NCBI GenBank assembly: GCA_028874995.1
Contig: JAPPGM010000147.1
Location: 4,545-68,544, forward strand
Direction of reading: 5' to 3'
Origin: Gemmatimonadota bacterium
GTDB taxonomy: Bacteria > Gemmatimonadota > Gemmatimonadetes > Longimicrobiales > Gaopeijiaceae
Length of the DNA stretch: 64,000 nt
In this document: positions 7,643-22,748 of the stretch, in pieces
How the letters are laid out: each line of letters begins with the position of its first letter
Position numbering within the stretch: the first letter of the stretch is position 1
Program-made: the position numbers and the translations under genes
The notes under the pieces: generated by a model
Databases searched by the model: none
The model's input: only the letters and a program-made list of their open reading frames with translations
Told to the model about the DNA's origin: nothing

Positions 7643-8533
7643 CTAATCCCCCGCCTGCGCATCATCACTCGGGTCAGGCCGCACGATGATCCGCACAGGG
7701 TCGGAGGGTGCGGCGCCGGCGAAGTACCCGTAGGCGCCTTCCAGTCCGAAGGAGGGCCAGGGTTGCCGCAAGGGGTATCTGCCCGACGCCTCGACGAAAT
7801 CGGCGTAGTTCCGTCCCAGTCCGAGCACTGCAACGGAAAGATGCACGGGTCGGCCCAGATAGATCCTCTTGTAGAGCGACGGGCTGGCGCGACTGAGAAT
7901 GAGATCGGCCCGGCCTGCTTCCAGACCGAGTACCAACGGTTCGCAAGAGATGGGACCTATGGGTTTCCGGGAACCGTCGGACTGAATCTCAAACGCATCG
8001 ATCACCTCCGAGTGCAGCATCGCGACATCGGAAGGGACTTCGAAGTGGATTGGCACGGTGAGGTAGTCCCCCTCACTTTGTGGCGGTAGCCGATGTCCGT
8101 CGGCCGGCTCGGTAATCACGGGTGCGGAAGGCACAACAGTGGCGCCGGTGAAGGAACCTGCCGGACCGGTCCCCGCGATGCTGTACCGGGTGCGCTCGCG
8201 GATTGGTTCCGGGAGCCGTGCGCGGAGGCACACCAAAGTGCCGGGCCAGGCTGTCAAGTCGGTTATCCCGCAATCGGCCAAGTCCGTCTCTTCGGAGAAC
8301 GCAGTCACCCAGCCGGGTCCCATCAGGCGTACGTTGACCTCCGGAGGCGAGCCGGATCGGGAACGGTGCGGATGCGCGGCCAACATGTGTACGTCGCTCT
8401 GCCCGGCCACCAGCATTGCTGTCACCACCAGCGCGTCCGATTCCGGAGCGAGTGGGTCCGCTGAACGAATACAACCGGCGCACGCAATAGCCGCCAACAC
8501 GGTGCATGGACGCAGCCCGGCAAGCGGTGTCAA
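7643..8533 (-). CDS. DUF4249-like lipoprotein, the usual partner of this TonB receptor type
   Basis: 296-aa ORF with lipobox LAAIACAGC. Its start overlaps the stop of the TonB receptor. Size and position match the DUF4249 proteins encoded downstream of CarboxypepD_reg-type receptors. The family call is from memory and not verified. Confidence 0.55.
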   Translation of the reverse strand: MTPLAGLRPCTVLAAIACAGCIRSADPLAPESDALVVTAMLVAGQSDVHMLAAHPHRSRSGSPPEVNVRLMGPGWVTAFSEETDLADCGITDLTAWPGTLVCLRARLPEPIRERTRYSIAGTGPAGSFTGATVVPSAPVITEPADGHRLPPQSEGDYLTVPIHFEVPSDVAMLHSEVIDAFEIQSDGSRKPIGPISCEPLVLGLEAGRADLILSRASPSLYKRIYLGRPVHLSVAVLGLGRNYADFVEASGRYPLRQPWPSFGLEGAYGYFAGAAPSDPVRIIVRPDPSDDAQAGD

Positions 8534-10857
8534 AACCGGAACTCCACGCCAAAGAAGGGTAGCATCGGCATTTGAGGCAGGTACACCTGGTCGATGATGC
8601 CGGCGCGGTCGCTCACCACGTCACGATCAAGGTTGGGCTCCGCGACCGCCGCCACCACGTTCGGCAAGCTGAAGAGGTTGGCAATGCTCACGAAGGGAGT
8701 GACCGAGCCGCCTCCGAACCAGGACACATCGCTGCTGTGTCGCCAGCCGACATCGAGCCGTACGTAGGGTGGGAGTCTCGCCGAATTATACTCCCCTCCG
8801 AAGGCCACCAAATCGCGGGACCCGGAGTTGTAGGTCACGTATGGTGCCACAGCCAGAATCGGGGTGGTCGGCTGTCCCGATCGCGCCGACACGCGACCGG
8901 ACCATGAGGACCCACCCCCCTCGATCGCTACACCAAACTCGAATTCATGATCGCGGTGAAGGCGGGGCGTGAAGGTCTCGTCGCCCACCGTGCGCGAGAC
9001 CCTGCTCCAGCGGTAGCTCCCGAGGGTCGCAACCGGTCCCCGGGCCCAGTTCCAGGAAGCCTCGATGCCCCGCGCCGCGCCGCCGGCCACCTTGCGCCGT
9101 CCCGGATCGCCCAGTGTTGTCGCCCCGAGCGGATTGGTTCCCAGCTCGGGTACGCGGAGGTTTTCCAGTTCTCGCAGGAATGCGTCCAGCCGCAGGCTGA
9201 GGAATCCGCGCTCCGCTTCCCACCCGACCGAGACTTCGGTGTTGCGCGGAACGGGGCCCTCGACGACCGGGGCCAGCAGGTCGTAGGCGAGGAAGCTTGC
9301 CCCGACCGACTCTTCATCTCGCATTGATGACAGTGATTGGTGCGATCGGGCCGCGAGGAGACGCGCCCGCCACCACGAGCCCGAGTAGCCGAGTTCGGCA
9401 AAGGGCGCCAAGGTGGTCGCCAGCCGCGTGAAATGGTCCAGCCGCAATCCCACACGCGAAGACCATCGTGGACCCATGCCGACATCCACGCTCGAATATG
9501 CCGCGAGTCGCCACTGGGCCGCCCGCACGTGCAGAGACGACAGTATGATCTGTTGCAGGTGCCTGTGCTCATCGTCCACCGCGAAGTTGTGGTCGGCGCT
9601 GAAACCGGTGGCCTGAACGCCGACCGTCGCGGTGGTATGGTCCGTGTAGCGGGTCACGCGCACGTCCGCCCGGTGTTCGCTCATGAACCCGTTGCCAAGG
9701 ATCACCGTGTCTTCGGGCGGCTCATAGGCTCCTCCAGGGAGTCTGGCGACCAGCGTGCGGCCGCCGCCAAGCCCAAGGATGTTGCTGGAAAAGCGGCTGT
9801 GCCCGACCGTCGCGTCAACCAGGGTGGCCGGGCCGAGCCGTTGGCGGTAGTGGGCCGCTACGGCGGCGTTGCCCCAATCAAGTTTGGCGGTCTCCTTGAA
9901 TTCTTCGTCAAGGTTGTCGAATGCCTCCGAGTTGATGTAGCCCGTGACCGAGAGGCGGCGAACACCCCCGAAGTCCTTCGTGAACTTCGCGTGCAGGTCG
10001 TCGAACGCGTACGGGATCACTGCCTCCGTCGCGCCGAACCCCCTGAGTCCCGAGAAGATGAGGTCGATGTAGGTTCGGCGGCCGTCGACGATGAAAGATG
10101 CGCTCTCACCGATCGGGCCCTCCACCGCGAGCCGCGATGAGGCGAGGCCCAACGAGCCCGTCACGCGCCGGCGGTCCCGGGCGCCGTCACGGGTCTGGAT
10201 TTCGATCGCCCCCGACAACGATCCGAGAGGCTGTGCCCCGTCGCCGGAGCTGGTCAGGAGAGTCGCCCGTTCCACGGCCTCTGCGTTTACAGCCGAAAGG
10301 AAGCCCCCAAGGTGATGGGGACTGAACAAACGCACCCCGTCGAGCATGACGGGTGTCTCCGCGCTGGTACCGCCCCGGATGTAGGGAATCGAGATCCAAT
10401 CCGACGGGGCCGAGGCGGACGGCGACATGGCGACCGCTCGCAGCGCGTCGGTCTCGAGAATCGCGGGTATCATCCGCATAAACGCTGTGTCGACGACGAA
10501 AGCGTCTCTCGACCGCGAGATCGGGTTTCCCACCTGCCCGCGAACGTTCACGACGATTGAGTCGATCGGGACCGGGTCGGGTCGCAACAACACTAGCAGT
10601 TCCCCGGGCGGGAGCTCGGAGTACGACCTGACCCACGTCGAATAGCCGGAGGCATCGACTTCCACTCGAACCGCTCCCGCCGGGGCGTTCGCCACGACGA
10701 ATGCGCCGAAGCGGTCGGAATCGGCCGAGGCCGTCGGGCCGTCCGGGACCGAGACGGTGATGCGTGCGAACCCTACCGGCTCAAGACTGACACTGTCGCG
10801 CACGACGCCGGAGACGGGCGCCTGCTGAATGAGGGCAAGCAACAGCGCCGTAGTCAT
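8530..10857 (-). CDS. TonB-dependent outer-membrane receptor with an N-terminal carboxypeptidase-regulatory-like domain
   Basis: 775 aa. It has the VSGVVRDSVSLEPVGFARITV beta-sandwich, the plug motif IPYIRGGTSAETPVMLDGVRLFSP, a long barrel, and a C-terminal FFGVEFRF with terminal Phe. Confidence 0.85.
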   Translation of the reverse strand: MTTALLLALIQQAPVSGVVRDSVSLEPVGFARITVSVPDGPTASADSDRFGAFVVANAPAGAVRVEVDASGYSTWVRSYSELPPGELLVLLRPDPVPIDSIVVNVRGQVGNPISRSRDAFVVDTAFMRMIPAILETDALRAVAMSPSASAPSDWISIPYIRGGTSAETPVMLDGVRLFSPHHLGGFLSAVNAEAVERATLLTSSGDGAQPLGSLSGAIEIQTRDGARDRRRVTGSLGLASSRLAVEGPIGESASFIVDGRRTYIDLIFSGLRGFGATEAVIPYAFDDLHAKFTKDFGGVRRLSVTGYINSEAFDNLDEEFKETAKLDWGNAAVAAHYRQRLGPATLVDATVGHSRFSSNILGLGGGRTLVARLPGGAYEPPEDTVILGNGFMSEHRADVRVTRYTDHTTATVGVQATGFSADHNFAVDDEHRHLQQIILSSLHVRAAQWRLAAYSSVDVGMGPRWSSRVGLRLDHFTRLATTLAPFAELGYSGSWWRARLLAARSHQSLSSMRDEESVGASFLAYDLLAPVVEGPVPRNTEVSVGWEAERGFLSLRLDAFLRELENLRVPELGTNPLGATTLGDPGRRKVAGGAARGIEASWNWARGPVATLGSYRWSRVSRTVGDETFTPRLHRDHEFEFGVAIEGGGSSWSGRVSARSGQPTTPILAVAPYVTYNSGSRDLVAFGGEYNSARLPPYVRLDVGWRHSSDVSWFGGGSVTPFVSIANLFSLPNVVAAVAEPNLDRDVVSDRAGIIDQVYLPQMPMLPFFGVEFRF

Positions 10858-11177: not shown

Positions 11178-13239
11178 CTACCCCGCCCCCCTCCTCCTCT
11201 CCAGCTCCGTCCTCACCTCCAGCGCACTCCCCTCCGTAATCGGATACATATACACCGCAAAGATCGCGATCCCCGACGCCACGAGCGGCACGAACGCATC
11301 ATAGAACCGCAGCCAGAAGATCGTCCCCTCGGGCTGGTTCGCCCCCAGCGCCGGATCCAGCCCGGTCGAGTACAGCAGGAACCCGCCGAGCAGGATCGCG
11401 AGACTCTGGCCGACCTTCACCACCCACCAGAAGACCGATCCGAACATTCCCTCGCGCCGCTCTCCGGTGCTGAGCTCGTCCAGGTCCACCACGTCCGCGA
11501 TCATCGACCCCATCAGGGTAAACAGCCCACCCAGACCGAAGGCCAGGAACGGGGCGGGGAGCAGCGCCAGCATGGGATAGTCCGGCGTATAGCAGAACCA
11601 CTTCAGCGCATAGCCGAACATCGAGATGCCGGTCGACACGAAGAAGGCGTTCTTCTTCCCGATCTTCGTCCCGAGCCAGGTCACCATGACGATCACCAGG
11701 AAGCCGGCGACGATCCCCAGTGTGCCGACCAGTCCCGCCAGCCCCGCCCCCTCCCCGATATTCCCCCCGGAGATGTAGAAGGCGAAGACCCAGAACTGGA
11801 ACTGGGAGATCATGATGAAGCTGTTGAAGATCAGGAAGGTCGCGATGCAGAGCATCAGGAACGGACCGGGTCTTCACCGTCTGCCACAGGCCCCGCAGGA
11901 ACTCCATCACGCTTTGCCCGAAGGTGGGGCCATCCGCGTCGGCGTCCTTGTCGCCGCCACCCGCGTGCATGCGTTCGCGCAGGAAGATCGCGGGGATCAC
12001 ACCCAACGCGATGGTCGTCACGCAGATCGCGACGGCCAGGAAGCGGGCCCCGGCCATCTGGTTTCGGAACCAGGCCGCGTTGGTCATGATCACGAGGAAC
12101 CAGGGCCCGATCACGAACGCAATGTTCGAGACGAAGTTCTGCACGCCCATCAGGCGCGTGCGCTCGTTGTAGTCGGGGGTGAGTTCGTACCCGAGCGCGA
12201 CCCACGGCGTGGCGAAGACGGTGTAGGCGAGGAAGAAGATCAGCGACCCGATCAGGAAGTACCAGAAGTAGTAGCCCTGGCTTCGCCCCTCGCCCGTAGG
12301 CTCCGGAGTCCAGATGTCCATGTGGACGTGCGTCATCCCGTGGGCGTCGACCGGGGTTTCGCCGAAGTCGATCGCGGCGAAGCGCATGCCGGTGTAGTGC
12401 TTGACGTCATCGTCGGCCGCCTGCGCGTCGGCCACCTCGGACTCGTCCCACTCGGTGGACCAGAACTGGACGGGGACGTCGTCGTAGGCGCCGGAGAAGA
12501 AGGAGATGACGTCTTCGGCCGGCACCGTGGGCGTGGGGGCGGCGGTGGACGGCGCCGTGGCTCCATCCACGTCCTCACCCGTGGGCTCCGCACGTGTGGT
12601 ATCGTCGGTGCGGTAGAGGTAGACGTTGTCGACGTAGACTTCGGTCAGGTCTCCCGAAATCAGGATCTGTGAGAGGTGCTCGCGGGTGGAAAGCTGGTCG
12701 AAGTCGGTGAGCGGAACGTCAACGCTCACCCAACCGCCGGTCAACAGGGCCGGGGGCAGGATGGTGACTTCGTCCTCGACATCGTCGATCAACTCGACCG
12801 TAACGATCCCCTTCAGCGAGTTCCCGACAGACTCCAGGAACCCGACCGGCTCACCGGTCTCGCCGCCGCTGTAGACGCCGTCGGCTCCGTAGTCGACCAG
12901 CTTGAGGCGGAACTGGGTCGGCGCCGGCATCTGCCAGAGCAGCGCGAAGATGATCCCGGACGCGATCGCTCCCACGAACAGGAACGGCCGCCGCCGCCCC
13001 CAGCGCGACTTCGTCTTGTCCGATATGAAACCGACAAGGGGATCGGTGATCGCATCGAAAGCCCGCGGCAGGCTGCCGAGCAGGCCGACGGCCCGGAAGT
13101 CCATCCCCAGCGCCAGGGTCAGCACCACCATCATGTTGCCGATGCCCTGCGCCAGCAGGTTGTTGACGAACCCGCCGATGCCGTAGCAGACCTTGTGCGG
13201 GAACGATATGCGGTCTTTGGGCGCGGTCCGTTGGATCAC
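11178..13239 (-). pseudogene. GPH-family (MelB/YicJ-like) glycoside:cation symporter with a large periplasmic-loop insertion; reading frame broken by a 1-nt frameshift near 11860-11875
   Basis: The N-part (13239 down to about 11870) reads KVCYGIGGFVNNL...DAITDPLVGFISDKTKSRWGRRRPF, the GPH signature. The C-part (11855..11178, other frame) reads PFLMLCIATFLIFNSF...MIADVVDLDELSTGERREGMF. The two frames join at gtgaagacccggTccgttcctgatg, where removing one nt gives VKTRPFLML. This is either a sequencing error or a true frameshift. Confidence 0.75.
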
Positions 13240-13242
13240 GGG

Positions 13243-14133
13243 TCATTCGCTACGGAAGACGCGCACCCAGTCGACGAGCATGGTTTGCGGGAAGCTCGTG
13301 GACTCGTCGGGCGGGCCGACGAAGCCGCCTCCCACGGCGACATTCAGCAGGATGAAGAAGGGGTGGTCGAAGACCCACTCGCCGCTGGGTTCGTCGCGGT
13401 CGACCGTGTGGTACAGTTCGCCGTCCACGAACCAGTCGATGCCCTCTTCGTCCCACTCGATACCGAAGACGTGGAAGTCCGTGTCGAAACGGGCGCCGGA
13501 GAGGACGTAGCGGCCGGTGACACCCGCGCTGGCGGAGTAGCCGGGCCCGTGGATGGTGCCGATCACAACGCTCGGCTCCTGGCCGCGGTACTCCATGATG
13601 TCGATCTCGCCGCACTGCGGCCAGCTCACCGTGTCGATGTCGTTGCCCAGCATCCAGAAGGCGGGCCAGATCCCCTGCCCGGTGGGCAGCTTGATGCGCG
13701 CCTCGAAGCGTCCGTGGGTCTGTTCGAAGAGCCCTTGGGTCTTGATGCGGCCGGAGGTGTAGGCGCTTCCCATGTAGGACTCCTCGCGCGCCGTGATCGC
13801 CAGGTTGCCGTTGCCGTCGAGCGACACGTTCTCGGGGCGGTCGGTGTCGTACTCCAGCTGCTGGTTGCCCCAGTCGGTGCCGATGTCGAAGGCCCAGTTG
13901 GCGGCGCTAGGGAGCTGTTCGGCGGGTCCGTCGAACTCGTCGCTCCAGACCATTTGCCAGGTGGGATCGTCCCCGTCGGCTCCGCATGCCGGGAGGAGCA
14001 GGGGGATGAAGAGCGGGGCGACCTTCGCCAGCGGTCCGTGGATGATGGCGGGGGGCTTCTTTCCCCGAGCTGCCAAGTGTGTCGTGCGCGTGCGCCGGGC
14101 GGATGATGTCGGGAAGAGCGCTGTTCGTTTCAT
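13243..14133 (-). CDS. GH16 endo-beta-1,3-glucanase (laminarinase-type) lipoprotein
   Basis: Start at ATG 14133 (MKRTALF...LLLPACGADG). Motifs WSDEFDG, GRFEARIKLP, WPAFWMLG, the catalytic GEIDIMEY (E-x-D-x-x-E), and a C-terminal MLVDWVRVF. The 595-aa track ORF is a shadow extension. Confidence 0.9.
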   Translation of the reverse strand: MKRTALFPTSSARRTRTTHLAARGKKPPAIIHGPLAKVAPLFIPLLLPACGADGDDPTWQMVWSDEFDGPAEQLPSAANWAFDIGTDWGNQQLEYDTDRPENVSLDGNGNLAITAREESYMGSAYTSGRIKTQGLFEQTHGRFEARIKLPTGQGIWPAFWMLGNDIDTVSWPQCGEIDIMEYRGQEPSVVIGTIHGPGYSASAGVTGRYVLSGARFDTDFHVFGIEWDEEGIDWFVDGELYHTVDRDEPSGEWVFDHPFFILLNVAVGGGFVGPPDESTSFPQTMLVDWVRVFRSE

Positions 14134-15365
14134 CGGGCCTTCACTCCCGGAAAGAGGCTTGGGTCGGCGAGGGCGGCGACCAGCACGTGGGTGGCGGCGC
14201 CGAGGGCCGTCGCACGCGGGCCGAGCTCGCTGGTACGGATATCTGAAGCCGCGGCCGAGGCCACCAGGGTCCGGCTGGCCACGGCCTCCTTGAGCGGTTT
14301 GACCAGCCGGTCGCCGAGCCGGGCCAGACTGCCGCCCAGGATCACCGAGCCGGGGTTCATCAGGTTGAGGACGCCGGCGATCACGATGCCCAGGTTGCGG
14401 GCGGCCTCGTCGACCACCTTGAGCGCGAGGGGATCGTCGGCCAGGGCGGCGTCTTCCAGGGCCCATATGTCGGGGTCGGTTCCAGCCAGCACACTCTGCG
14501 GGAAGTCGGACAGCAGCGTCCGGGTTCGCGCCACCAGCGCCCGGGTCCCCACGAACGTCGCCAGGCACCCCCGGTTTCCGCAGACGCACGGCGGTCCCCG
14601 CGGATCGATGGCCACGTGGCCGATCTCGCCGGCCACCCCGGTGGCGCCGCGGTAGATCTCGCCGTCGATCATCAGCCCGGCTCCGATCCCTGTCGCCACC
14701 TTCAGGTAGGCGAAGTCGTCGATTCCGACCGCCTTGCCCCAATGGTGTTCCGCGAGTGCGCCCAGGTTGGCGTCGTTGTCGAAGAAGACCGGGATGCCGA
14801 AATGCCCGCGCAGCTCTCCCAGCAAGTCGAATTCGTGCCAGGCGGGGAGGATGCGCTCGAGGATGCGGTAGGGCGAAAGGGGATCGACCGGACTGGGCAC
14901 CGCGACGCCGATCCCCATCGGATCGGGCGCGCCCGGTCCCCGCGCGGCCAGACACGCGTCTCCCAGCTTCACCGCCAACGCGGCCGTCCCGTGCGGGTCG
15001 CTCCGCACCGGATGGTTCTCCTCCCGCCACTCGAGGATTCGCCCGCGCAGATCCGTGAGCGCCACGGACACATGCGCGGCGCCGATGTCCACCCCGAGAA
15101 TCGTGCTCGCATCATCCCGGAATCCGATCAGGATGGGTCTCCTGCCCCCACGGCTCTCCCCGCTGCCCACCTCCTCGATGAGCCCCGTGGGCAGGAGGCG
15201 AGCCACCGCCTCGGAGATCGTGGAACGGGAACGGCCGGTGCGGCGCGCAATCTCGGCCCTGGAGACCTCCCGTCGCCGCCAGACGAACTCCAGCACCTCG
15301 TTGGCAAGACCGCCTTCGCGTGCAATGCCGGATCCGGACTGCTTCGCGCGCGTTGAAGTGGTCAT
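14130..15365 (-). CDS. ROK-family transcriptional regulator (NagC/XylR-like)
   Basis: 411 aa. N-terminal wHTH SRAEIARRTGRSRSTISEAVARLL, ROK sugar-kinase-like fold with GVDIGAAHV and DNDANLGALAEHWG, and the zinc motif GHVAIDP...CVCGNRGCLATF. The stop overlaps the GH16 start (ATGA). Confidence 0.9.
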   Translation of the reverse strand: MTTSTRAKQSGSGIAREGGLANEVLEFVWRRREVSRAEIARRTGRSRSTISEAVARLLPTGLIEEVGSGESRGGRRPILIGFRDDASTILGVDIGAAHVSVALTDLRGRILEWREENHPVRSDPHGTAALAVKLGDACLAARGPGAPDPMGIGVAVPSPVDPLSPYRILERILPAWHEFDLLGELRGHFGIPVFFDNDANLGALAEHHWGKAVGIDDFAYLKVATGIGAGLMIDGEIYRGATGVAGEIGHVAIDPRGPPCVCGNRGCLATFVGTRALVARTRTLLSDFPQSVLAGTDPDIWALEDAALADDPLALKVVDEAARNLGIVIAGVLNLMNPGSVILGGSLARLGDRLVKPLKEAVASRTLVASAAASDIRTSELGPRATALGAATHVLVAALADPSLFPGVKAR

Positions 15366-15410: not shown

Positions 15411-17500
15411 CTACTTGCGCAGGTACACGTTGTCCAGGAACACCGTGTTCGGGTCTCCGGAGATGATCAACTGCGCAAGATGCCTGCGCGCCGCCAACCC
15501 GCTGAACTCCGAGAACGGGATGTCGTAGCTGACCCACATGCCCGTGGCGAGCGCCGGATCGGACGCTGCCGTCAGCGTCAGCTCGTGTTCGCTGTCGTCC
15601 CCTCCGCCGAAGGCGCCGTCGGCCCCGAAGTCCACCAGCTTGACCCGGAACGCCGCCGGATCGGCGGTGGGATCGGGGGTCCAGAAGTCGAAGCGAAAGT
15701 GGGTCATTTCGCCGGCGTCGATCGTCGACGAGGTGAATTCGATCCCGGCGAAGACGAGGTTGGTGTACTTCTTGACCGTGTCCCCCTGGATGTCGACATC
15801 CTCGACATCGGCCTGGTCCCACGATGCCGACCATGTGTCCACGGTCACATCCGTGTAGGCGTCGCTGAAGAGCGAGATGACGCTGTCGGCCGCGTGGGCC
15901 GGGGTCGGCGCGGGCTCGGTGGGCTCGTTGGGCGTGCCGTAGAAGTAGACGTTGTCCACGAAAACGGTGTTCGGGTCGCCCGAGATGATCATCTGGGCGA
16001 GGTGGGCGCGTTCGGCGAGCCCCTCGAAGGCTGAGAAGGGGATATCAAGGGCCACCCACCTGGCGGCGGCCAGCGCCGGATCGGTCTCGGCGGTGAAGGT
16101 CAGCTCGTGCTCGCTGTCGTCGCCTCCCTGGAAGCCTCCGTCGGCCCCGAAGTCCACGAGCTTCACGCGGAAGGCCGCAGGGGCGGCGGTCGCGTCCGGC
16201 GTCCAGATGTCCATGTGGAAATGGGTCGCGTCCGAAGCGTCCACGGTCTGTGACGTGAACTCGATGCCCGCGAAGACGAGGTTGGTGTACTTCTTCACTG
16301 CATCCCCCTGGACTTCCGTGTCCTCCACATCAGCCTGGTCCCACCCGGCCGACCAGGTGTCGACATTCGCGTCCTCGTAGGCATCGCTGTAGAGGGACAC
16401 GACGCTCGCAGCCGGATGCGTGGGCGTCGGGGCCGGCTCGGCGGGCTCCGTGGCCGCCGGGGAGTAGAAGTAGACATTGTCGACAAAGACCGTGTTCGGA
16501 TCACCCGAGATGATCATCTGCGCGAGGTGGGCGCGTTCGGCGAGCCCCTCGAAAGCGGAGAAGGGGACATCGAGACCCACCCACTCGGCGGTGGCAAGCG
16601 CGGGGTCGGTCTCCGCGGTGAAGGTCAGCTCGTGCTCGCTGTCGTCGCCCCCCTGGAAACCGCCGTCAGGCCCGAAGTCCACGAGCTTGACCCGGAAAGC
16701 CGCGGGCGCGTCGGTCCCGTCCGGGGTCCAGATGTCCATGTGGAAATGGGTCGCCGCGCCAGCGTCCACCGTCTGCGAGGTAAACTCGATCCCCGCGAAG
16801 ACCAGGTTGGTGTACTTCTTCATCCCGTTGTCGTCGATCGCCACGTCCTCCACGTCCGCCTGGTCCCACCCGGCCGACCAGGTGTCGACATTCGCGTCTT
16901 CGTACGCGTCGCTGTAGAGCGAGACGACGCTGCCGGCCGGATGGGCAGGCGTGGGCGCGGGCCTGGATGGTTCCGTGGGCCCCGGGGGTTCGGTGGTGAA
17001 GAAGAAGATGTTGTCGAGGTAGACCGTCGGACTCGCCCCCGAGATGATCAGCTGGGCCAGGTGACCCTTGTTCGCGAGTCCGGCGAAGTCGGTGAGGGGA
17101 ATGTCCAGCACGTTCCAGGCGCCGGCCCGGATGGGAGGCATCGAATTCTCGTCCAGTGTGATCTCGTGCTCGCTGTCGTCCCCTCCGCCGAAGACCCCGT
17201 TGCCGCCGAAGTCGACCAGCTTGATGCGGAAGGCGGACGCATCATTCGTCCACAGGTCCACGTGCATGGTGGTCATCCTCGAGGCGTCGACGGGCTGCGA
17301 GGTGAACTCGATGCCGGCGTAGTTCAGGTTGGTGTACTTCTTGGCCCCGTTGCCCGCGATCGCCACGTCCTCGACGTCGGCCTGGTCCCACTCCGCCGAC
17401 CAGGTGTCCACGTGCACGTCGTCGTAGGCGTCGCTGAAGAGGGAGATCACGTCTTCGGCGGGGATGGTCGGGGTGGGCGGCGGCTCGCGTGGCGGCTCGG
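15411..17500. repeat. Four in-frame tandem repeats of about 525 bp inside the lipoprotein gene
   Basis: Repeat landmarks (gtagaagtagac.ttgtc.ac.aa.ac.gtgttcgg) occur at 15414, 15939, 16464 and about 16995, giving periods of 525/525/531 bp. The two middle copies are roughly 85-90% identical at protein level by eye. Confidence 0.85.
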
Positions 17501-18419
17501 TCACGATCACGGTCACGGCGCCGCTCGCCTGGGTGGATCCCAGCGCCGCGGTGATGGTGGCGGTTCCGGTGCCGACCAGGGAGATGTCGCCGGTGGGGGT
17601 CACGGTTGCCACGCTGTTGTCCGACGAGGTGAAGGTGAAGTAATGAGGCGAGGCGAAGACTGTCTGGTCCTTGCCGTTCACGTCGAAGGTCACCCGGGTG
17701 CCCCCGACTCCCAGCGTGCCGCCGACCTCGCCGGACACCGTCTGCGTAGCGATGGCCGGCCGCGGGTTGATGATCGTGCCCAGCCGCTCGAACTGTACGT
17801 CGTCGAAGTAGATCGTGTAGCCGACGTCGTATTCCGAGCCCTCAGCCATCAGGAAGAGGCCGGTTTCGCGTGACAGCTTGGAGGGCAGCGGAATGGGGAC
17901 CGCGTACTTGGTCCAGCGGGTGGAGAGCGGGAGACCCTCCATCGTGGCGGGGTATAGGGAGTTCCCGGTGTTGTCGTTGCCGATGCCGACGGTGTTGAGT
18001 GTCGCGGCGGTGGTGGCCTTGGCCCAGAAGGTCAGCGCGTCGAACCCGGTCAGGTCGCGCGGCACCTCGGCGTAGAAGACGCCGCCCGCGTAGCTGCCCG
18101 ACGGGTCGGATGGGGCCGGAATCGTGAACTTGAGCGCGGCCGTTCCCCGGTACACCTCCTCGTACTCGATATCCAGCGCGTCCACCTTCGATCCCCCGAA
18201 GGCGGAGAACTGCACGGACGGCCCGAAGGCGTCGTAGAAGACCTCCGGCTCGGCGGGGTAGGGCGCCGGCTCGAGCATGTCGAGGTCCCGCGTGCAGGTC
18301 GTCGAGAGGAGGAGGATCGCCATTGCGGCAGCAATTCCCCGTTCAGCGCCCCGCGCCAGCCCGGCGCCCCGCCGCTCCCGGTCCGCGTGCGAATTCCTGT
18401 GTGGGGTGCTCGCTGTCAT
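15411..18419 (-). CDS. Multimodular surface glycan-binding-like lipoprotein: CBM-like beta-sandwich, Big_2, then four tandem 175-aa modules
   Basis: I take the start at ATG 18419 (MTAST...AAAMAILLLSTTC). The track start at 18512 would include an operator-like palindrome. The N-domain ends in YTIYFDDVQFERLG, followed by a Big_2-like segment (SSDNSVATVTPTGDISLVGTGTATITA). Four repeats then follow of VISL[FY]SDAY.D..VDTWSA.WDQADVED...KKYTNL.[FY]AGIEFTS..VDA...THFHMD[IL]WT...AFR[VI]KLVDFG..G.F.GGDDSEHE[LI]T...LD[IV]P[FL][ST].F.GLA...HLAQ.IISG...TV[FY][VL]DN[VI][YF]F. Confidence 0.8.
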   Translation of the reverse strand: MTASTPHRNSHADRERRGAGLARGAERGIAAAMAILLLSTTCTRDLDMLEPAPYPAEPEVFYDAFGPSVQFSAFGGSKVDALDIEYEEVYRGTAALKFTIPAPSDPSGSYAGGVFYAEVPRDLTGFDALTFWAKATTAATLNTVGIGNDNTGNSLYPATMEGLPLSTRWTKYAVPIPLPSKLSRETGLFLMAEGSEYDVGYTIYFDDVQFERLGTIINPRPAIATQTVSGEVGGTLGVGGTRVTFDVNGKDQTVFASPHYFTFTSSDNSVATVTPTGDISLVGTGTATITAALGSTQASGAVTVIVTEPPREPPPTPTIPAEDVISLFSDAYDDVHVDTWSAEWDQADVEDVAIAGNGAKKYTNLNYAGIEFTSQPVDASRMTTMHVDLWTNDASAFRIKLVDFGGNGVFGGGDDSEHEITLDENSMPPIRAGAWNVLDIPLTDFAGLANKGHLAQLIISGASPTVYLDNIFFFTTEPPGPTEPSRPAPTPAHPAGSVVSLYSDAYEDANVDTWSAGWDQADVEDVAIDDNGMKKYTNLVFAGIEFTSQTVDAGAATHFHMDIWTPDGTDAPAAFRVKLVDFGPDGGFQGGDDSEHELTFTAETDPALATAEWVGLDVPFSAFEGLAERAHLAQMIISGDPNTVFVDNVYFYSPAATEPAEPAPTPTHPAASVVSLYSDAYEDANVDTWSAGWDQADVEDTEVQGDAVKKYTNLVFAGIEFTSQTVDASDATHFHMDIWTPDATAAPAAFRVKLVDFGADGGFQGGDDSEHELTFTAETDPALAAARWVALDIPFSAFEGLAERAHLAQMIISGDPNTVFVDNVYFYGTPNEPTEPAPTPAHAADSVISLFSDAYTDVTVDTWSASWDQADVEDVDIQGDTVKKYTNLVFAGIEFTSSTIDAGEMTHFRFDFWTPDPTADPAAFRVKLVDFGADGAFGGGDDSEHELTLTAASDPALATGMWVSYDIPFSEFSGLAARRHLAQLIISGDPNTVFLDNVYLRK

Positions 18420-18490
18420 CGTTCCATCCCGAGTTTGTTCGGGTACCCCCGGAGCCCAGCGAACTGCGGAGCGCCGGAACACCACGCCTG

Positions 18491-18515
18491 ACTTTGTTCG
18501 GTTGCCGAACAAAGT
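18491..18515. promoter_or_regulatory. Perfect 11-bp inverted repeat ACTTTGTTCGG-ttg-CCGAACAAAGT; candidate operator for the ROK regulator
   Basis: The 25-bp palindrome lies 72-96 nt upstream of the lipoprotein start. A third half-site TTTGTTCGG lies at 18434..18442, next to the RBS region. The site is in the divergent intergenic region of the glucan locus. Confidence 0.4.
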
Positions 18516-18779: not shown

Positions 18780-21700
18780 GTGTTCGGCAATGGTATTGCT
18801 CGCTCTGCGACAAGTCTTGGTTCCCTTTTGCCCGGAATCACCCTCGGACCGCGCCGGTTCTTCGGTACGGCGATCGTTCTGGCCCTTGTTGCCACCCTGT
18901 CCTGTGGTGACGAACCAATCCCGCCCGACCCTGCCGAGCCGACACGCGTAACGGTGAGTCCGGGTTCCCTGCAATTCGAGGCTCTGCAGGATACCGCGCG
19001 GCTGACGGCCCAGGTGCAGGACCAGTACGGCAACGTCATGGCCGGCGCGGCGGTGACCTGGGTGAGCAGCGATGGGTCCGTGGCGGTGGTGAACTCCGAG
19101 GGCCTGGTGCGTTCGGTGGGTAACGGGGAGGCGGTGGTGACGGCCACGGCAGGGTCGGCCTCCGGAACGGCGTCAGTCACGGTGGCCCAGCGCGTGACCG
19201 CTATGACGATCTCACCCCCCGGTGACACCCTGGTCGAGCGCGAGACGAGACAGCTGGTCGCTGCGGCCAGCGACGCCAACGGGAACGCTGTGGACGTCAC
19301 GTTTTCGTGGACCACGAGCACGCCTGCGGTCGCCACGGTTGACGAGTCCGGGCTGGTCACCGCCGTGGCAGCGGGGGAAGCGCGGATCACGGCGACCGCA
19401 GCGGAGGTCAGCGGAAGCGCGGATCTGCTCATCGTCGTTCCCGTGCCCACCACCGTGACGGTTGCCCCGGGCATGGTGGAGTTGATGGGCGTTGGCGACA
19501 CGGCGCGTTTCTCGGCGGAAGTCCTCGACCAGATCGGGCGGCCCATGGACTACGGGCCGGTCGATTGGTCTACCGGGGACGCAGGTGTGGCGAGCATCGA
19601 TTCCTCGGGGCTTGCCACGGCGATCGGCCTTGGGCAGACGCAGATCGGCGCGCGTGCCGGCTCAGCCGAGGGAACCGCGGAAGTCAGGGTGAACCTGCGT
19701 ATCACGCTGACGATATCCCCCCCGGCGATGACTCTGAGTCCTGGTGACTCGGTGTCACTGATCGTGGAAGCCAGGGACGAGGCCGGCAACGTTGTCGGAG
19801 TCAACTCCCACGTGGAATCGTCGGATACGTCGGTGGTAAAGATAGTCCGTGGTGATCTGGTGACGGCGGTGGCCCTGGGTGAAGCCGACGTGATCGTGCG
19901 CGCGACCTGGGAAGGGGGCGGCGACACTGTGACCGTGCCGGTGGAGGTGACGGACAGGGTGCATTCGATCACCCTGACGCCTGCCGTCGACACGATCGTC
20001 ATGTTGGACACGGTGAGGATCGTGGCTGAGGCGAGGGATGCGGACGGGCAGGTGTTGTCGGACGTGTACCCCCTGTGGAACTCGAGCAACTACGGCATCG
20101 CCGGCGTGAACGACGCAGGCCTGGTTTCCGCGCAACAGAACAGGGAGGGTACGGCGGCGGTCACGGCCACGGTAGGAACCGCCTCGGACACGGCGTGGAT
20201 CACCGTGGTCAGCCCGGACCGTGAGCCGCTGCGGGCCTTCTTTCTCGCAACCAACGGGACGCGTTGGCGCTTTCGGCACCGTTGGCTCACCGGCGATCCG
20301 TTGCCCAATTGGTATGGCGTGAGAATGCACTTCGGCTCGCCGCGAGTCCGCTCGCTGGCTCTGCCGGACAACCGGCTCAGCGGTGTCATCCCGCCGGAGA
20401 TCGAAGGCCTCACCGAGATCCAGCACATCGACCTTTACCTCAACTACATTGGCGGTTCAATCCCGCCGGAAATCGGCAATCTGGGCAAGCTGGAGGGCGT
20501 GCACCTTTCCGCCAACGCGCTGGTGGGACCGGTGCCGGGGGAACTCGGCAATCTCTCCGAATTGAAGGGACTCTCGCTCGGCACGAACCCTCTCGGCGGC
20601 CCGATTCCGCGGGAATTGGGGAACCTCTCCGAGCTGCAGTACCTGGAGATCAACGGCGGCGAGCTGTCCGGTGCGATACCGCGGGAGCTTGGCAACCTCT
20701 CCCGGTTGGAGACACTCCTTCTCGCCGGCAACGATCTCGGGGGAGCGATTCCCCGGGAATTCGGCCGACTCGGCGGCCTGGTACGCACGGAACTCCAGTT
20801 CAATAACCTGACCGGGCAGATACCGGGTGGTTTCCTGGAGCTCGAAAACCTGGAAGAGGCGGATCTTTCGAACAACAGGTTCACGTCGATAGGAAGTCCG
20901 CCGGGCAACAGCCAACGCTCCGGCATAGCGCAGTTGTTCCTCCACAACAACGAGATCAGCGGGCAGCTTCCTCCCGAACTCGCGAGACTGTCCAACCTCG
21001 AGGTGCTGACTCTCGAGAACAACAGATTCAGCGGGCAGCTTCCCGCCGAATTCGCGAGACTGTCCAACCTCGAGGTCCTGACGCTCCACGACAACGACCT
21101 TGGCGGACAGCTTCCTCCCGAGGTCGGCGGAATGGCGAACCTGCGCCTCCTGGACATCCGGAACAATCCTCGGATGACCGGCCCGCTTCCGCACAGCCTG
21201 ACGGCCCTCGGCAGGCTGGAGGCCCTTCAGACCGAAGGAACGGAACTGTGCGCGCCCGCCGACGAGGGGTTCCAGGAGTGGCTGGAACGGATTCCCAGGC
21301 ACCGAATACGCAACTGCGACGCAGCGGACAGCGAGCTGTATCTGGTGCAGGCGGTGCAGTCGCGGCGTTTTCCGGTCCCGCTGGTTGCCGGGGAGGCGGC
21401 CCTGCTTCGTGTGTTCGTGGCGGCCCCGAACGCGGGCAGCGCCACGATTCCCCCGGTCCGGGCGACCTTCTACCTCGACGGGTCGATGGTTCACGAGGTG
21501 GAGATCCCCGCGAAGTCCGAGTCCATTCCGGCGGAGATCGACGAGAGCGACCTGGACTTGTCTTCCAATGCCGAGATTCCCGCGCGTGTGCTGAAAAGCG
21601 GTCTGGAGATGGTTGTCGAAATCGATCCGGACAGCACGCTGGATCCCGGGCTGGGCGTCACAAGGACCATCCCTCCCACGGGACGGATGCCGGCCACGGT

Positions 21701-22748
21701 GCGCGAGGTGCCGGCGCTCGACCTGACGGTGATCCCGTTCCTGAGCTTCACCCAGCCCGACTCGTCGATCATCGACCTGGTGAATGCAATGGCGTCGGAC
21801 CCGGAGGGTCACGAACTCCTCGGAGCCACGCGTACGCTCATGCCGGTTCAGGACATGGACGTGACCGCCCACCACCCCGTGCTTACCGGAGCGACCGAAG
21901 CCTTCGGCCTCCTCGCGGATGTGATCGCCATCCGGGCGCTGGAGGGAGGAACCGGCCACTACATGGGCACGATTCCCTCGGTCACAACCCATGTTGCTGG
22001 AGTCGCGATACTCGGAGGCTGGACGTTCTTCTCCCTGCCCCTCGAGGGGACGATCGCACACGAACTCGGACACAACTTCGGTCTCTTCCATGCACCATGC
22101 GGGAATCCCGGAGCGGTGGATCCCGCGTTTCCGGAAGCGAACGGGTCAATCGGTGCGTGGGGGTACGACTTCGAATCGGGAAGCCTGGTACCCGAGACGT
22201 ACTCGGATCTCATGGGCTATTGCGGCGAACAGTGGATCAGCGACTACCACTTCTCCAGCGCCCTCCGCTATCGGCGCAATCCGGTCGCGGCTCCGGACCG
22301 GCGCTCCGGCGAGTCGCTCCTGCTCTGGGGCGGCACGGATCCGGACGGTGCTCCGTTCCTCGAGCCGGTCTTCCTGGCCGACGCCCCGCCCACGCTTCCC
22401 GACTCGGCAGGTGACTACGAGATCGTCGGTCGCGACGCCGGCGGTACCGAACTCTTCGCGCTGTCGTTTGCCATGCCCTTGCTGGCGGACGGCGACGGTC
22501 GTTCGGCGTTTGCCTTCACCCTGCCCGCGGACGATGACTGGAGCGGTTCCCTGGCCAGCCTCACCCTTGAAGGCCCCGGGGGCTCCGCCGGCATCGACGC
22601 GACCACCGACCGGCCGACGGTGATCCTCCGCGATCGCGGCAGCGGACAGGTGCGCGGCATTCTGAGGGAGATCCCGCTCGCGGCCATGTCCCCGCCCGGT
22701 GTCGACGTGCTGTTCAGCCGCGGTCTGCCGGCCGTCGGCACACGCTGA
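18780..22748 (+). CDS. Giant lipoprotein: five Big_2 Ig-like domains, about 12 plant-type LRRs, and a C-terminal metzincin-like zinc protease domain
   Basis: 1322 aa. GTG start preceded by ggaggaggagga, lipobox LVATLSCGD. Five repeats of the .T[VI][ST]P......G....L.A...D..G type. 24-residue LRRs follow the pattern L..L..L.L..N.L.G.IP.ELGNL. Zinc motif IAHELGHNFGLFHAPCG (HExxHxxGxxH) near 22058..22090. Confidence 0.85.
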   Translation: MFGNGIARSATSLGSLLPGITLGPRRFFGTAIVLALVATLSCGDEPIPPDPAEPTRVTVSPGSLQFEALQDTARLTAQVQDQYGNVMAGAAVTWVSSDGSVAVVNSEGLVRSVGNGEAVVTATAGSASGTASVTVAQRVTAMTISPPGDTLVERETRQLVAAASDANGNAVDVTFSWTTSTPAVATVDESGLVTAVAAGEARITATAAEVSGSADLLIVVPVPTTVTVAPGMVELMGVGDTARFSAEVLDQIGRPMDYGPVDWSTGDAGVASIDSSGLATAIGLGQTQIGARAGSAEGTAEVRVNLRITLTISPPAMTLSPGDSVSLIVEARDEAGNVVGVNSHVESSDTSVVKIVRGDLVTAVALGEADVIVRATWEGGGDTVTVPVEVTDRVHSITLTPAVDTIVMLDTVRIVAEARDADGQVLSDVYPLWNSSNYGIAGVNDAGLVSAQQNREGTAAVTATVGTASDTAWITVVSPDREPLRAFFLATNGTRWRFRHRWLTGDPLPNWYGVRMHFGSPRVRSLALPDNRLSGVIPPEIEGLTEIQHIDLYLNYIGGSIPPEIGNLGKLEGVHLSANALVGPVPGELGNLSELKGLSLGTNPLGGPIPRELGNLSELQYLEINGGELSGAIPRELGNLSRLETLLLAGNDLGGAIPREFGRLGGLVRTELQFNNLTGQIPGGFLELENLEEADLSNNRFTSIGSPPGNSQRSGIAQLFLHNNEISGQLPPELARLSNLEVLTLENNRFSGQLPAEFARLSNLEVLTLHDNDLGGQLPPEVGGMANLRLLDIRNNPRMTGPLPHSLTALGRLEALQTEGTELCAPADEGFQEWLERIPRHRIRNCDAADSELYLVQAVQSRRFPVPLVAGEAALLRVFVAAPNAGSATIPPVRATFYLDGSMVHEVEIPAKSESIPAEIDESDLDLSSNAEIPARVLKSGLEMVVEIDPDSTLDPGLGVTRTIPPTGRMPATVREVPALDLTVIPFLSFTQPDSSIIDLVNAMASDPEGHELLGATRTLMPVQDMDVTAHHPVLTGATEAFGLLADVIAIRALEGGTGHYMGTIPSVTTHVAGVAILGGWTFFSLPLEGTIAHELGHNFGLFHAPCGNPGAVDPAFPEANGSIGAWGYDFESGSLVPETYSDLMGYCGEQWISDYHFSSALRYRRNPVAAPDRRSGESLLLWGGTDPDGAPFLEPVFLADAPPTLPDSAGDYEIVGRDAGGTELFALSFAMPLLADGDGRSAFAFTLPADDDWSGSLASLTLEGPGGSAGIDATTDRPTVILRDRGSGQVRGILREIPLAAMSPPGVDVLFSRGLPAVGTR
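20957..21100. repeat. Near-identical 72-bp (one LRR unit) tandem duplication
   Basis: cgcgagactgtccaacctcgaggt.ctgac.ctc occurs at 20981 and again at 21053, encoding ARLSNLEVLTLENNRFSGQLP and ARLSNLEVLTLHDNDLGGQLP. Confidence 0.8.

Follow-up and report, generated by a model that had tools for sequence, protein, structure and literature searches.

How does a sugar:cation symporter come to carry a large folded domain between two of its membrane helices, and what could such a domain do? The question is raised by a minus-strand gene in a 64,000-nucleotide stretch of a Gemmatimonadota genome (assembly GCA_028874995.1, contig JAPPGM010000147.1, positions 4,545 to 68,544), called here the window. 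Its open reading frame (13239..11299, minus strand) reads normally through the first three transmembrane helices (TM1-TM3), continues with 216 additional in-frame residues and then resumes with TM4. A first-pass annotation of the window, made from the letters alone, counted about 215 extra residues at this place and related them, in permuted order, to a module repeated in a neighbouring protein; the insert spans 12927..12280, and the GPH family profiles split there. The reading favoured here, to which we give a probability of roughly 0.6, is that of a conserved GPH symporter of marine Gemmatimonadota with a permuted domain of carbohydrate-binding module (CBM) type acting as a tethered capture domain. 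The structural and evolutionary part of this reading is held with high confidence; the function as a glycan-capture domain would be about an even bet. The transporter gene is composed as follows.

11178..13239, minus strand: GPH-family (MelB/YicJ-type, Pfam MFS_2) sugar:cation symporter, 686 aa after removal of a one-base frameshift
12928..13239, minus strand: N-terminus and TM1-TM3 (...RWGRRRPFLFVGAIASGIIFALLWQMP), with the loop 2-3 motif DPLVGFISDKTKSRWGRRRP; aligns to MelB 2-95 and MFSD2A 31-136
12280..12927, minus strand: 216-residue insert in the TM3-TM4 loop, protein residues 105-320; putative circularly permuted CBM-like module
12607..12921, minus strand: first part of the insert, with module strands 6-10 (second half, FRLKLVDYG ... 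VYVDNVYLY; HMM match and AlphaFold2 strands)
12787..12870, minus strand: family-specific segment of ~28 residues, SGGETGEPVGFLESVGNSLKGIVTVELI, replacing a short GGFQGG loop of the module; a gap in BLASTP
12523..12606, minus strand: retained PT-rich inter-repeat linker, bridging the module's original termini (C to N); aligned colinearly with linkers in the neighbour
12295..12522, minus strand: last part of the insert, with module strands 1-5 (first half, EDVISFFSGAY ... THVHMDIWTPEP; HMM 1-79)
11178..12279, minus strand: TM4-TM12 of the symporter, TM4 beginning GYYFWYFLIGSLIFFLAYTVF; MFS_2 profile positions 86-427; frame broken once

The insert and its permuted relation to the neighbouring module

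By profile and motif, the symporter is a member of the GPH family (TC 2.A.2). PF13347 (MFS_2) scores 196 bits (cut-off 27; E 7.4e-58), its match falling into two segments that flank the insert, the second resuming at residue 310. The match of TIGR00792 (E 1.2e-48) is likewise divided around the insert, profile positions 5-101 covering residues 10-105 and positions 96-437 covering residues 322-682; its 165.9 bits lie below the curated cut-off of 231 bits, and the split may contribute to this. The loop 2-3 motif, of the D..G..SD....R.GRRRP type, is present and invariant in 29 homologues, and the charge distribution, together with a crude hydropathy segmentation, is consistent with twelve TM helices and two cytoplasmic termini. 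In a close relative that lacks the insert (P0130), the TM3-TM4 loop consists of seven residues (PDGHSEM).

The likely source of the additional residues is found three genes upstream in the same cluster. Its 1033-aa product carries four module domains recognized by a hidden Markov model (HMM), at residues 348-505, 522-683, 697-858 and 871-1032, with a repeat period of 174-175 aa, modules of 160-175 aa and PT-rich linkers between them. BLASTP of the insert against this protein gives E = 9e-45 and 42% identity, in an alignment that runs colinearly over a repeat boundary: the second half of one repeat, the PT-rich linker and the first half of the next. The module HMM was built in natural order from 42 modules, comprising the four repeats of the window protein and homologues from several phyla. 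In hmmsearch, insert residues 4-27 correspond to HMM positions 78-102, residues 49-107 to positions 99-160 and residues 134-212 to positions 1-79. Permuted coverage of the module is complete, with nothing missing and nothing duplicated, and the cut lies at module position 78/79. All 21 members of the insert family that were compared de-permute onto the module HMM in this way. Alignment of the insert profile with the module profile by hhalign gives a probability of 99.9% and E 1.5e-37 for the last part of the insert; hhalign reports the best-scoring half only, and the other half is shown by hmmsearch. As judged by these alignments, the insert is an exact circular permutation of the neighbour's repeat. 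Both the permuted homology and the idea that the piece was cut from the middle of a tandem pair had been put forward in the first-pass annotation, and the retention of the PT-rich inter-repeat linker in mid-insert agrees with the latter. Two parts of the insert differ from homologue to homologue: the ~28-residue segment is variable in the family alignment, and the linker varies in length, at least 28 residues being kept in all.

What kind of domain is this module? AlphaFold2 models module 3, in natural order, with a mean predicted local accuracy (pLDDT) of 95.5 and a predicted global score (pTM) of 0.90, and Foldseek finds 73 matches of this model in the PDB at E <= 1e-3. The top match, 6r3m, is a CBM11 with beta-1,3-1,4 glucan (E 1e-6, TM-score 0.62); the CBM11 entries 6r3m and 1v0a range over E 1e-6 to 2e-6 and TM-scores of 0.57-0.62, and the other leading matches are CBM8, CBM30, CBM28, CBM27, CBM22 and CBM16. 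By Foldseek (E 1e-6 to 1e-4, TM-scores 0.55-0.66), the module has the type B beta-jelly-roll fold of CBM11 and CBM8/30/28/22. As modelled, it is a type-B-CBM-like jelly roll, and its earlier description as a glycan-binding-type module fits these matches (CBM11, CBM8, CBM30, CBM28 and CBM22, at E values reaching 1e-6 and TM-scores of ~0.6). What distinguishes the transporter's copy from modules of CBM11 type is its circular permutation and its place within a membrane protein.

The isolated insert, run as a monomer with 21 homologous inserts in the alignment, is modelled as a compact all-beta domain with pTM 0.78 and pLDDT ~90 in both halves. It contains the ten strands and the short helix of the module in rotated order, the strands of the first part lying at residues 7-13, 51-57, 67-73, 86-93 and 97-106. 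A pTM of 0.78 would not be expected for two unpacked half-sandwiches, and the model supports the packing of the two halves into one sandwich with the same strand set as the module; the refolding into a single domain suggested beforehand is thus what AlphaFold2 predicts. Foldseek of the insert model gives no significant match (best E 0.16, TM-scores < 0.25). We read this as a probable consequence of permutation, because Foldseek is order-dependent and the unpermuted module yields its 73 matches.

The insert is placed on the periplasmic side by homology and by charge. In the solved structures of MelB and MFSD2A, loop 3-4 is on the extracytoplasmic side, opposite to the N-terminus and loop 2-3, which lie in the cytoplasm. 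The insert contains 9 K+R against 42 D+E (net charge about -33) and no Cys, and the cytoplasmic loop 2-3 has 7 K+R. Together, MelB/MFSD2A homology and the positive-inside rule support a periplasmic insert, the location assumed in the first-pass annotation. The tethers are short, with ~5 residues from TM3 to the first strand and ~11 from the last strand to TM4. Therefore, the domain is predicted to sit on the periplasmic face of the N-lobe, beside the cavity-lining TM4.

Distribution, selection and gene context

A protein search with the repaired transporter sequence finds at least 120 protein clusters with the same architecture, the matches listed all being at least 62% identical over the aligned region. 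Most of these are full-length (674-760 aa, 95-100% query coverage) and a few are partial; intact homologues of 681-760 aa have 62-96% identity. Among the matches listed, many clusters are encoded on contigs of 3-5 Mb whose annotation is Gemmatimonadota or Candidatus Palauibacter. When each GTDB species was represented by one genome, a scan requiring the N-terminal part, the insert and the C-terminal part in order recovered 46 insert-bearing loci in ~42 species-level genomes, all Gemmatimonadota (Longimicrobiales/Palauibacter). All 46 related transporter genes are intact, with open reading frames throughout. Related genomes with the same insertion, for which a search had been recommended, are therefore at hand. 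Four genomes hold two insert-bearing paralogues each (loci L004/L035, L005/L026, L007/L010 and L009/L011); as each paralogue has its own upstream GH16 or module genes, the whole cassette appears to have been duplicated in some lineages.

Selection was measured as the ratio of non-synonymous to synonymous substitutions (dN/dS; pairwise NG86, 271-272 pairs per region, 78-95% identity).

TM1-3: 0.12
Insert, the two halves: 0.19 and 0.24
Linker: 0.39, the highest of the gene
TM4-6: 0.15
C-lobe: 0.19

Both halves of the insert are under purifying selection. The view of an old, selected fusion, advanced before any of these genomes had been compared, is sustained by the 46 intact loci, by dN/dS of ~0.2 and by conserved synteny.

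In the window, four successive minus-strand genes form one cluster, which encodes the tandem-module protein, a ROK protein, a GH16 enzyme and the GPH symporter. The three genes upstream of the transporter are the following.

13243..14133, minus strand: GH16 glycoside hydrolase with a lipoprotein-type signal (..LLLPAC); Pfam Glyco_hydro_16, E 7e-27; directly upstream of the transporter
14130..15365, minus strand: ROK-family regulator or sugar kinase with an N-terminal winged helix-turn-helix domain; Pfam ROK, E 6.5e-55
15411..18512, minus strand: donor-type gene for the 1033-aa secreted lipoprotein-like protein; N-terminal beta-rich region, Big_2 Ig-like domain and four tandem modules

This order is largely kept among the relatives. 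A GH16 gene lies directly upstream of the transporter in 45 of the 46 loci; within the 6 kb examined, a tandem-module gene lies upstream in 45 as well, the exception having only 1.4 kb of upstream sequence, and ROK stands between GH16 and the module gene in 40. Outside the insert-bearing group, in Ignavibacteria, Calditrichia, Zixibacteria, Cytophagia and some other Gemmatimonadota, a module gene is found 1-5 kb upstream of an insert-less orthologous GPH gene, in which the C-terminal part starts 21 nt after the N-terminal part. Since other phyla keep the module gene together with an insert-less GPH, the insertion is derived and the neighbourhood older. The origin of the insert within its own operon is suggested by proximity and not by phylogeny, because the insert is no closer to the modules of its own neighbour (42% identity) than to those of other phyla (44-46%). 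DNA identity to the repeats is 65-70%, moderate as first described; with the insert not closest to its own neighbour, this rules out a recent recombination artefact.

The tandem-module protein itself has a hydrophobic N-terminal segment ending LLLSTTC (18305-18323, minus strand). With Thr at -1 this is not a canonical lipobox, and the label 'lipoprotein' is for that reason tentative; in a close relative (locus L001), the gene call starts the protein after the hydrophobic segment. Elsewhere, the module is also appended to GH16 enzymes and to proteins secreted by the type IX secretion system. A comparable protein is the surface glycan-binding protein Cf-SGBP of Christiangramia forsetii, a marine Bacteroidota, in which a laminarin-binding 'CBMxx' module is repeated four times in tandem; the founding member of CBMxx is reported to have been crystallized and solved with laminaritriose, and transporters are not mentioned in that paper (Zuhlke et al., bioRxiv 10.1101/2023.09.07.556657). 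Both proteins combine a lipoprotein-like N-terminus, one or more Ig-like domains and four similar beta-sandwich repeats in a GH16-containing beta-glucan locus. They differ in the nearest structure, which is CBM11 for the window module and the GH50-attached module 4BQ2 for the Cf-SGBP repeat. The window module gave no match to any PDB chain in profile and single-sequence searches, and no Cf-SGBP entry is among its top 50 Foldseek hits; as far as sequence goes, its membership of the CBM family of Cf-SGBP is not established.

Some features of the neighbourhood are recorded for completeness. In the window, the GH16 gene has ~31 additional residues, PTSSARRTRTTHLAARGKKPPAIIHGPLAKVAP (14022-14133, minus strand), between the initial MKRTALF and the hydrophobic lipoprotein signal, which are missing from the GH16 of L001 (MKRTAIFLPLIPLLLSAC); they may form a genuine extension, or they may reflect an alternative start or a pair of indels. 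Downstream of the transporter, after a gap of 320 bp, the same strand encodes a TonB-dependent receptor with an N-terminal CarboxypepD_reg domain (8530-10857, minus strand). The divergent gene at 18780-22748 (plus strand) has a product of 1322 aa, in which Big_2 Ig-like repeats occur beside leucine-rich repeats and a region weakly resembling Peptidase_M66.

Proposed function and rival explanations

The following course of events may be proposed. In an ancestor of Longimicrobiales/Palauibacter, an out-of-phase segment of tandem modules, comprising the second half of one module, the PT-rich linker and the first half of the next, would have been copied into the transporter gene, the likely donor being the tandem-module gene of its own lipoprotein-ROK-GH16-GPH cluster. 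The halves would pack as one sandwich, in which the old inter-repeat linker closes the natural termini and the new termini lie in the former loop between strands 5 and 6, with 5-11 residues separating them from TM3 and TM4. The domain would stand on the N-lobe's periplasmic face, beside the entrance of the outward-open cavity. There it may bind beta-1,3-glucan (laminarin-type) oligosaccharides freed by the GH16 enzyme of the cluster, raise their local concentration and pass them to the symporter.

A glycan-binding role of the insert is suggested by its fold, by the genes around it and by conserved residues. The module family has 43 positions with conservation of >=85%, and the insert family retains 35 of them, including Y16, W24, Y46, W74, W120, the DD.E.E motif and DN. 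The context points to beta-glucan through the constant GH16 partner, the presence of the module on GH16 enzymes and type IX-secreted proteins, the fold match to a beta-glucan-binding CBM and the laminarin-binding four-repeat surface proteins of marine Bacteroidota. A related insert-less GPH protein (P0157) is fused at its C-terminus to a GH17 (beta-1,3-glucanase) domain, which suggests that this clade of transporters takes up beta-1,3-glucan oligosaccharides. From the GH16/GH17 context and the fold, such oligosaccharides are the probable substrate of the window symporter also.

Several observations weigh against this reading. The likeness to CBM11 exists at fold level only, with ~15% identity in the Foldseek alignments; the insert, the module and the 42-sequence module profile match no Pfam, NCBIfam or PDB sequence, neither insert nor modules have a Pfam match at E <= 0.1, and sequence membership of CBM11 was accordingly not found. 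A 28-residue segment of the insert (residues 21-48) is modelled at pLDDT < 50. The VDTW..W motif of the module is partly altered in the insert, which lacks D22 and T23 and in one sub-clade has other residues in place of W28; because of these changes, the glycan site may be remodelled. The replacements of W28 (..WSxxWD.., invariant in free modules) are P, R or T in P0051, P0054, P0065, P0067, P0073, P0075, P0077 and P0085 (alignment A1, columns ~360-370). Finally, the window copy of the transporter is frameshifted.

The frameshift leads to the least credible of the alternatives, a chimeric assembly or a pseudogene with a neutral passenger. That the gene would need repair had been anticipated, and the lesion is a single base outside the insert: the window has CCC at 11868-11870 (minus strand), where the 94%-identical intact gene of L001 has CC. 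A global DNA alignment of the two shows one gap only, at this site, and dropping one C restores the family consensus ...TVKTGPFLMLCIATF... (KTGPFLML). The extra C, part of a short homopolymer, is separated from each junction by more than 400 bp and leaves the insert and its junctions unaffected; it may stem from an error in the assembly, or the gene may have been inactivated very recently. Against artefact or decay stand the 46 intact loci, the at least 120 protein clusters from independent assemblies, 3-5 Mb chromosomes among them, and purifying selection on both halves. For the family, misassembly and pseudogene readings are ruled out by the intact loci together with dN/dS.

Other explanations accept the domain and dispute its role. 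The insert might be a protein-protein docking platform for a periplasmic partner (the GH16 enzyme, the module protein or the plug of a TonB-dependent transporter) and itself bind no glycan, product being channelled by way of the partner that it keeps at the transporter. The strict co-occurrence with GH16 and the module protein would suit such a platform, as would the loss of D22/T23 and the variability of W28 relative to the module family, and the variable family-specific segment of 28 residues could be an interaction loop. The 35 conserved aromatic, acidic and other positions that are kept are, however, more easily explained by a retained ligand site, and the downstream TonB-dependent receptor is not kept in the 96%-identical L001, so that docking is judged unlikely. 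A role as gate or sensor, by which ligand occupancy would open or occlude the periplasmic entrance and so regulate transport instead of feeding it, is more doubtful still. The tethers of ~5 and ~11 residues fix the domain next to the cavity-lining TM4, and the insert is as conserved as the C-lobe of the transporter, both of which would fit a gate; such regulation has no precedent in GPH transporters, and insert-less orthologues work without it in the same gene context. Very improbable is a domain-swap dimerization device, in which half-modules of two protomers complement each other in trans. Each half alone is an incomplete sandwich, half-domains of tandem arrays can in principle swap, and the monomer-only AlphaFold2 run is compatible with pairing in trans. 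Yet the linker of at least 28 residues in all homologues is long enough for intramolecular closure, AlphaFold2 packs the halves within one chain (pTM 0.78), and GPH transporters, as is known of MelB, act as monomers. Weighed together, these points favour the tethered capture domain.

Related designs and known systems

Is this insertion a single case? In a profile search of 1.84 billion representative proteins, the Gemmatimonadota family is one 50%-identity representative (P0122). Other GPH proteins carry different domains between TM3 and TM4. A beta-rich domain of ~180 aa occurs there once or twice (P0133, 654 aa; P0132, 840 aa; locus L081). Proteins of the P0133 type form at least 120 clusters at 57-100% identity, most of 620-890 aa, annotated only as MFS/GPH transporters; among the matches listed, the named ones belong to Cloacimonadota, Marinimicrobia and Planctomycetota, and no literature describing the loop insert of these three phyla was found. 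The P0133 domain was considered as a diverged copy of the module and rejected, being not detectably related (hhalign probability 0.3%). A candidate third case is a GPH protein with a ~360-aa WD40-type beta-propeller in this loop (P0128; locus L082, 6245-8773); its gene directly follows a GH16 gene, on the one contig where it was found, which is labelled 1x coverage. With at least two inserts unrelated in sequence, the TM3-TM4 loop appears to be a recurrent insertion site in GPH transporters. A bolder and tentative idea, which we consider somewhat less probable than its negation, is that loop 3-4 of one GPH subfamily recurrently acquires periplasmic ligand-capture domains, making up an unrecognized class of secondary transporters with a built-in binding domain. 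If real, such a class would be the counterpart of binding-protein-dependent ABC and TRAP systems. Full-text literature searches on MFS/GPH transporters with an inserted CBM-type domain found no description, and databases name the insert-bearing proteins simply 'MFS transporter'; the design is apparently undescribed.

On the usual view, secondary sugar symporters need no dedicated binding protein, and high-affinity scavenging by Gram-negative bacteria is usually assigned to ABC or TRAP transporters with soluble binding proteins. A GPH symporter with a binding domain at its periplasmic entrance would, if confirmed, be a third solution, in laminarin-processing organisms; laminarin makes up one of the ocean's largest carbon fluxes. 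In the Gemmatimonadota, moreover, a domain would have been inserted and circularly permuted in one step, by out-of-phase capture from a tandem array of the same operon. As a natural example of domain insertion, a slice of a tandem array would give a permuted but complete domain with adjacent new termini, and because these termini lie side by side, the slice fits a tight loop between helices. The likely donor array, the insert-less ancestral state and the 46 derived copies are all available for comparison, and the design may be useful for engineering transporters with added capture domains.

Comparison with known systems sets the window symporter apart in several ways. With MelB, YicJ and UidB of the GPH family it shares the MFS_2/TIGR00792 matches, the twelve-helix layout, the loop 2-3 motif D-x-x-x-G-x-x-S-D-x-x-x-S-R-W-G-R-R-R-P and a sugar-utilization gene context, and MFSD2A is its nearest solved structure. 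In MelB, YicJ, UidB and MFSD2A the periplasmic TM3-TM4 loop is short, whereas here it is predicted to hold a folded domain of 216 residues. The known accessory domain of GPH transporters, the IIA domain of LacS and RafP, is C-terminal and cytoplasmic, and the insert differs from it in both position and kind. Closest in proposed logic are the ABC importers GlnPQ and OpuA, to which substrate-binding domains are fused: in both designs a binding domain is tethered covalently to the translocator at its outer face. GlnPQ and OpuA are, however, primary transporters with domains of the periplasmic-binding-protein fold fused terminally through a flexible linker, in contrast to a secondary transporter with a beta-sandwich inserted within a loop by very short tethers. 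Extracellular domains inserted in eukaryotic MFS proteins are known from PepT1 and PepT2 (between TM9 and TM10) and from the luminal domain of SV2. These, too, are folded beta-rich domains in an extracytoplasmic MFS loop, but they occupy a different loop, belong to a different fold family and have no evident role in substrate capture. As to origin, the model of 'permutation by duplication' derives circular permutants by duplication and truncation, and the insert resembles its products in being an out-of-phase window of a tandem duplicate with the inter-repeat linker retained. It departs from that model in that the segment of the array has been transplanted into another gene, while the likely donor array still stands in the operon.

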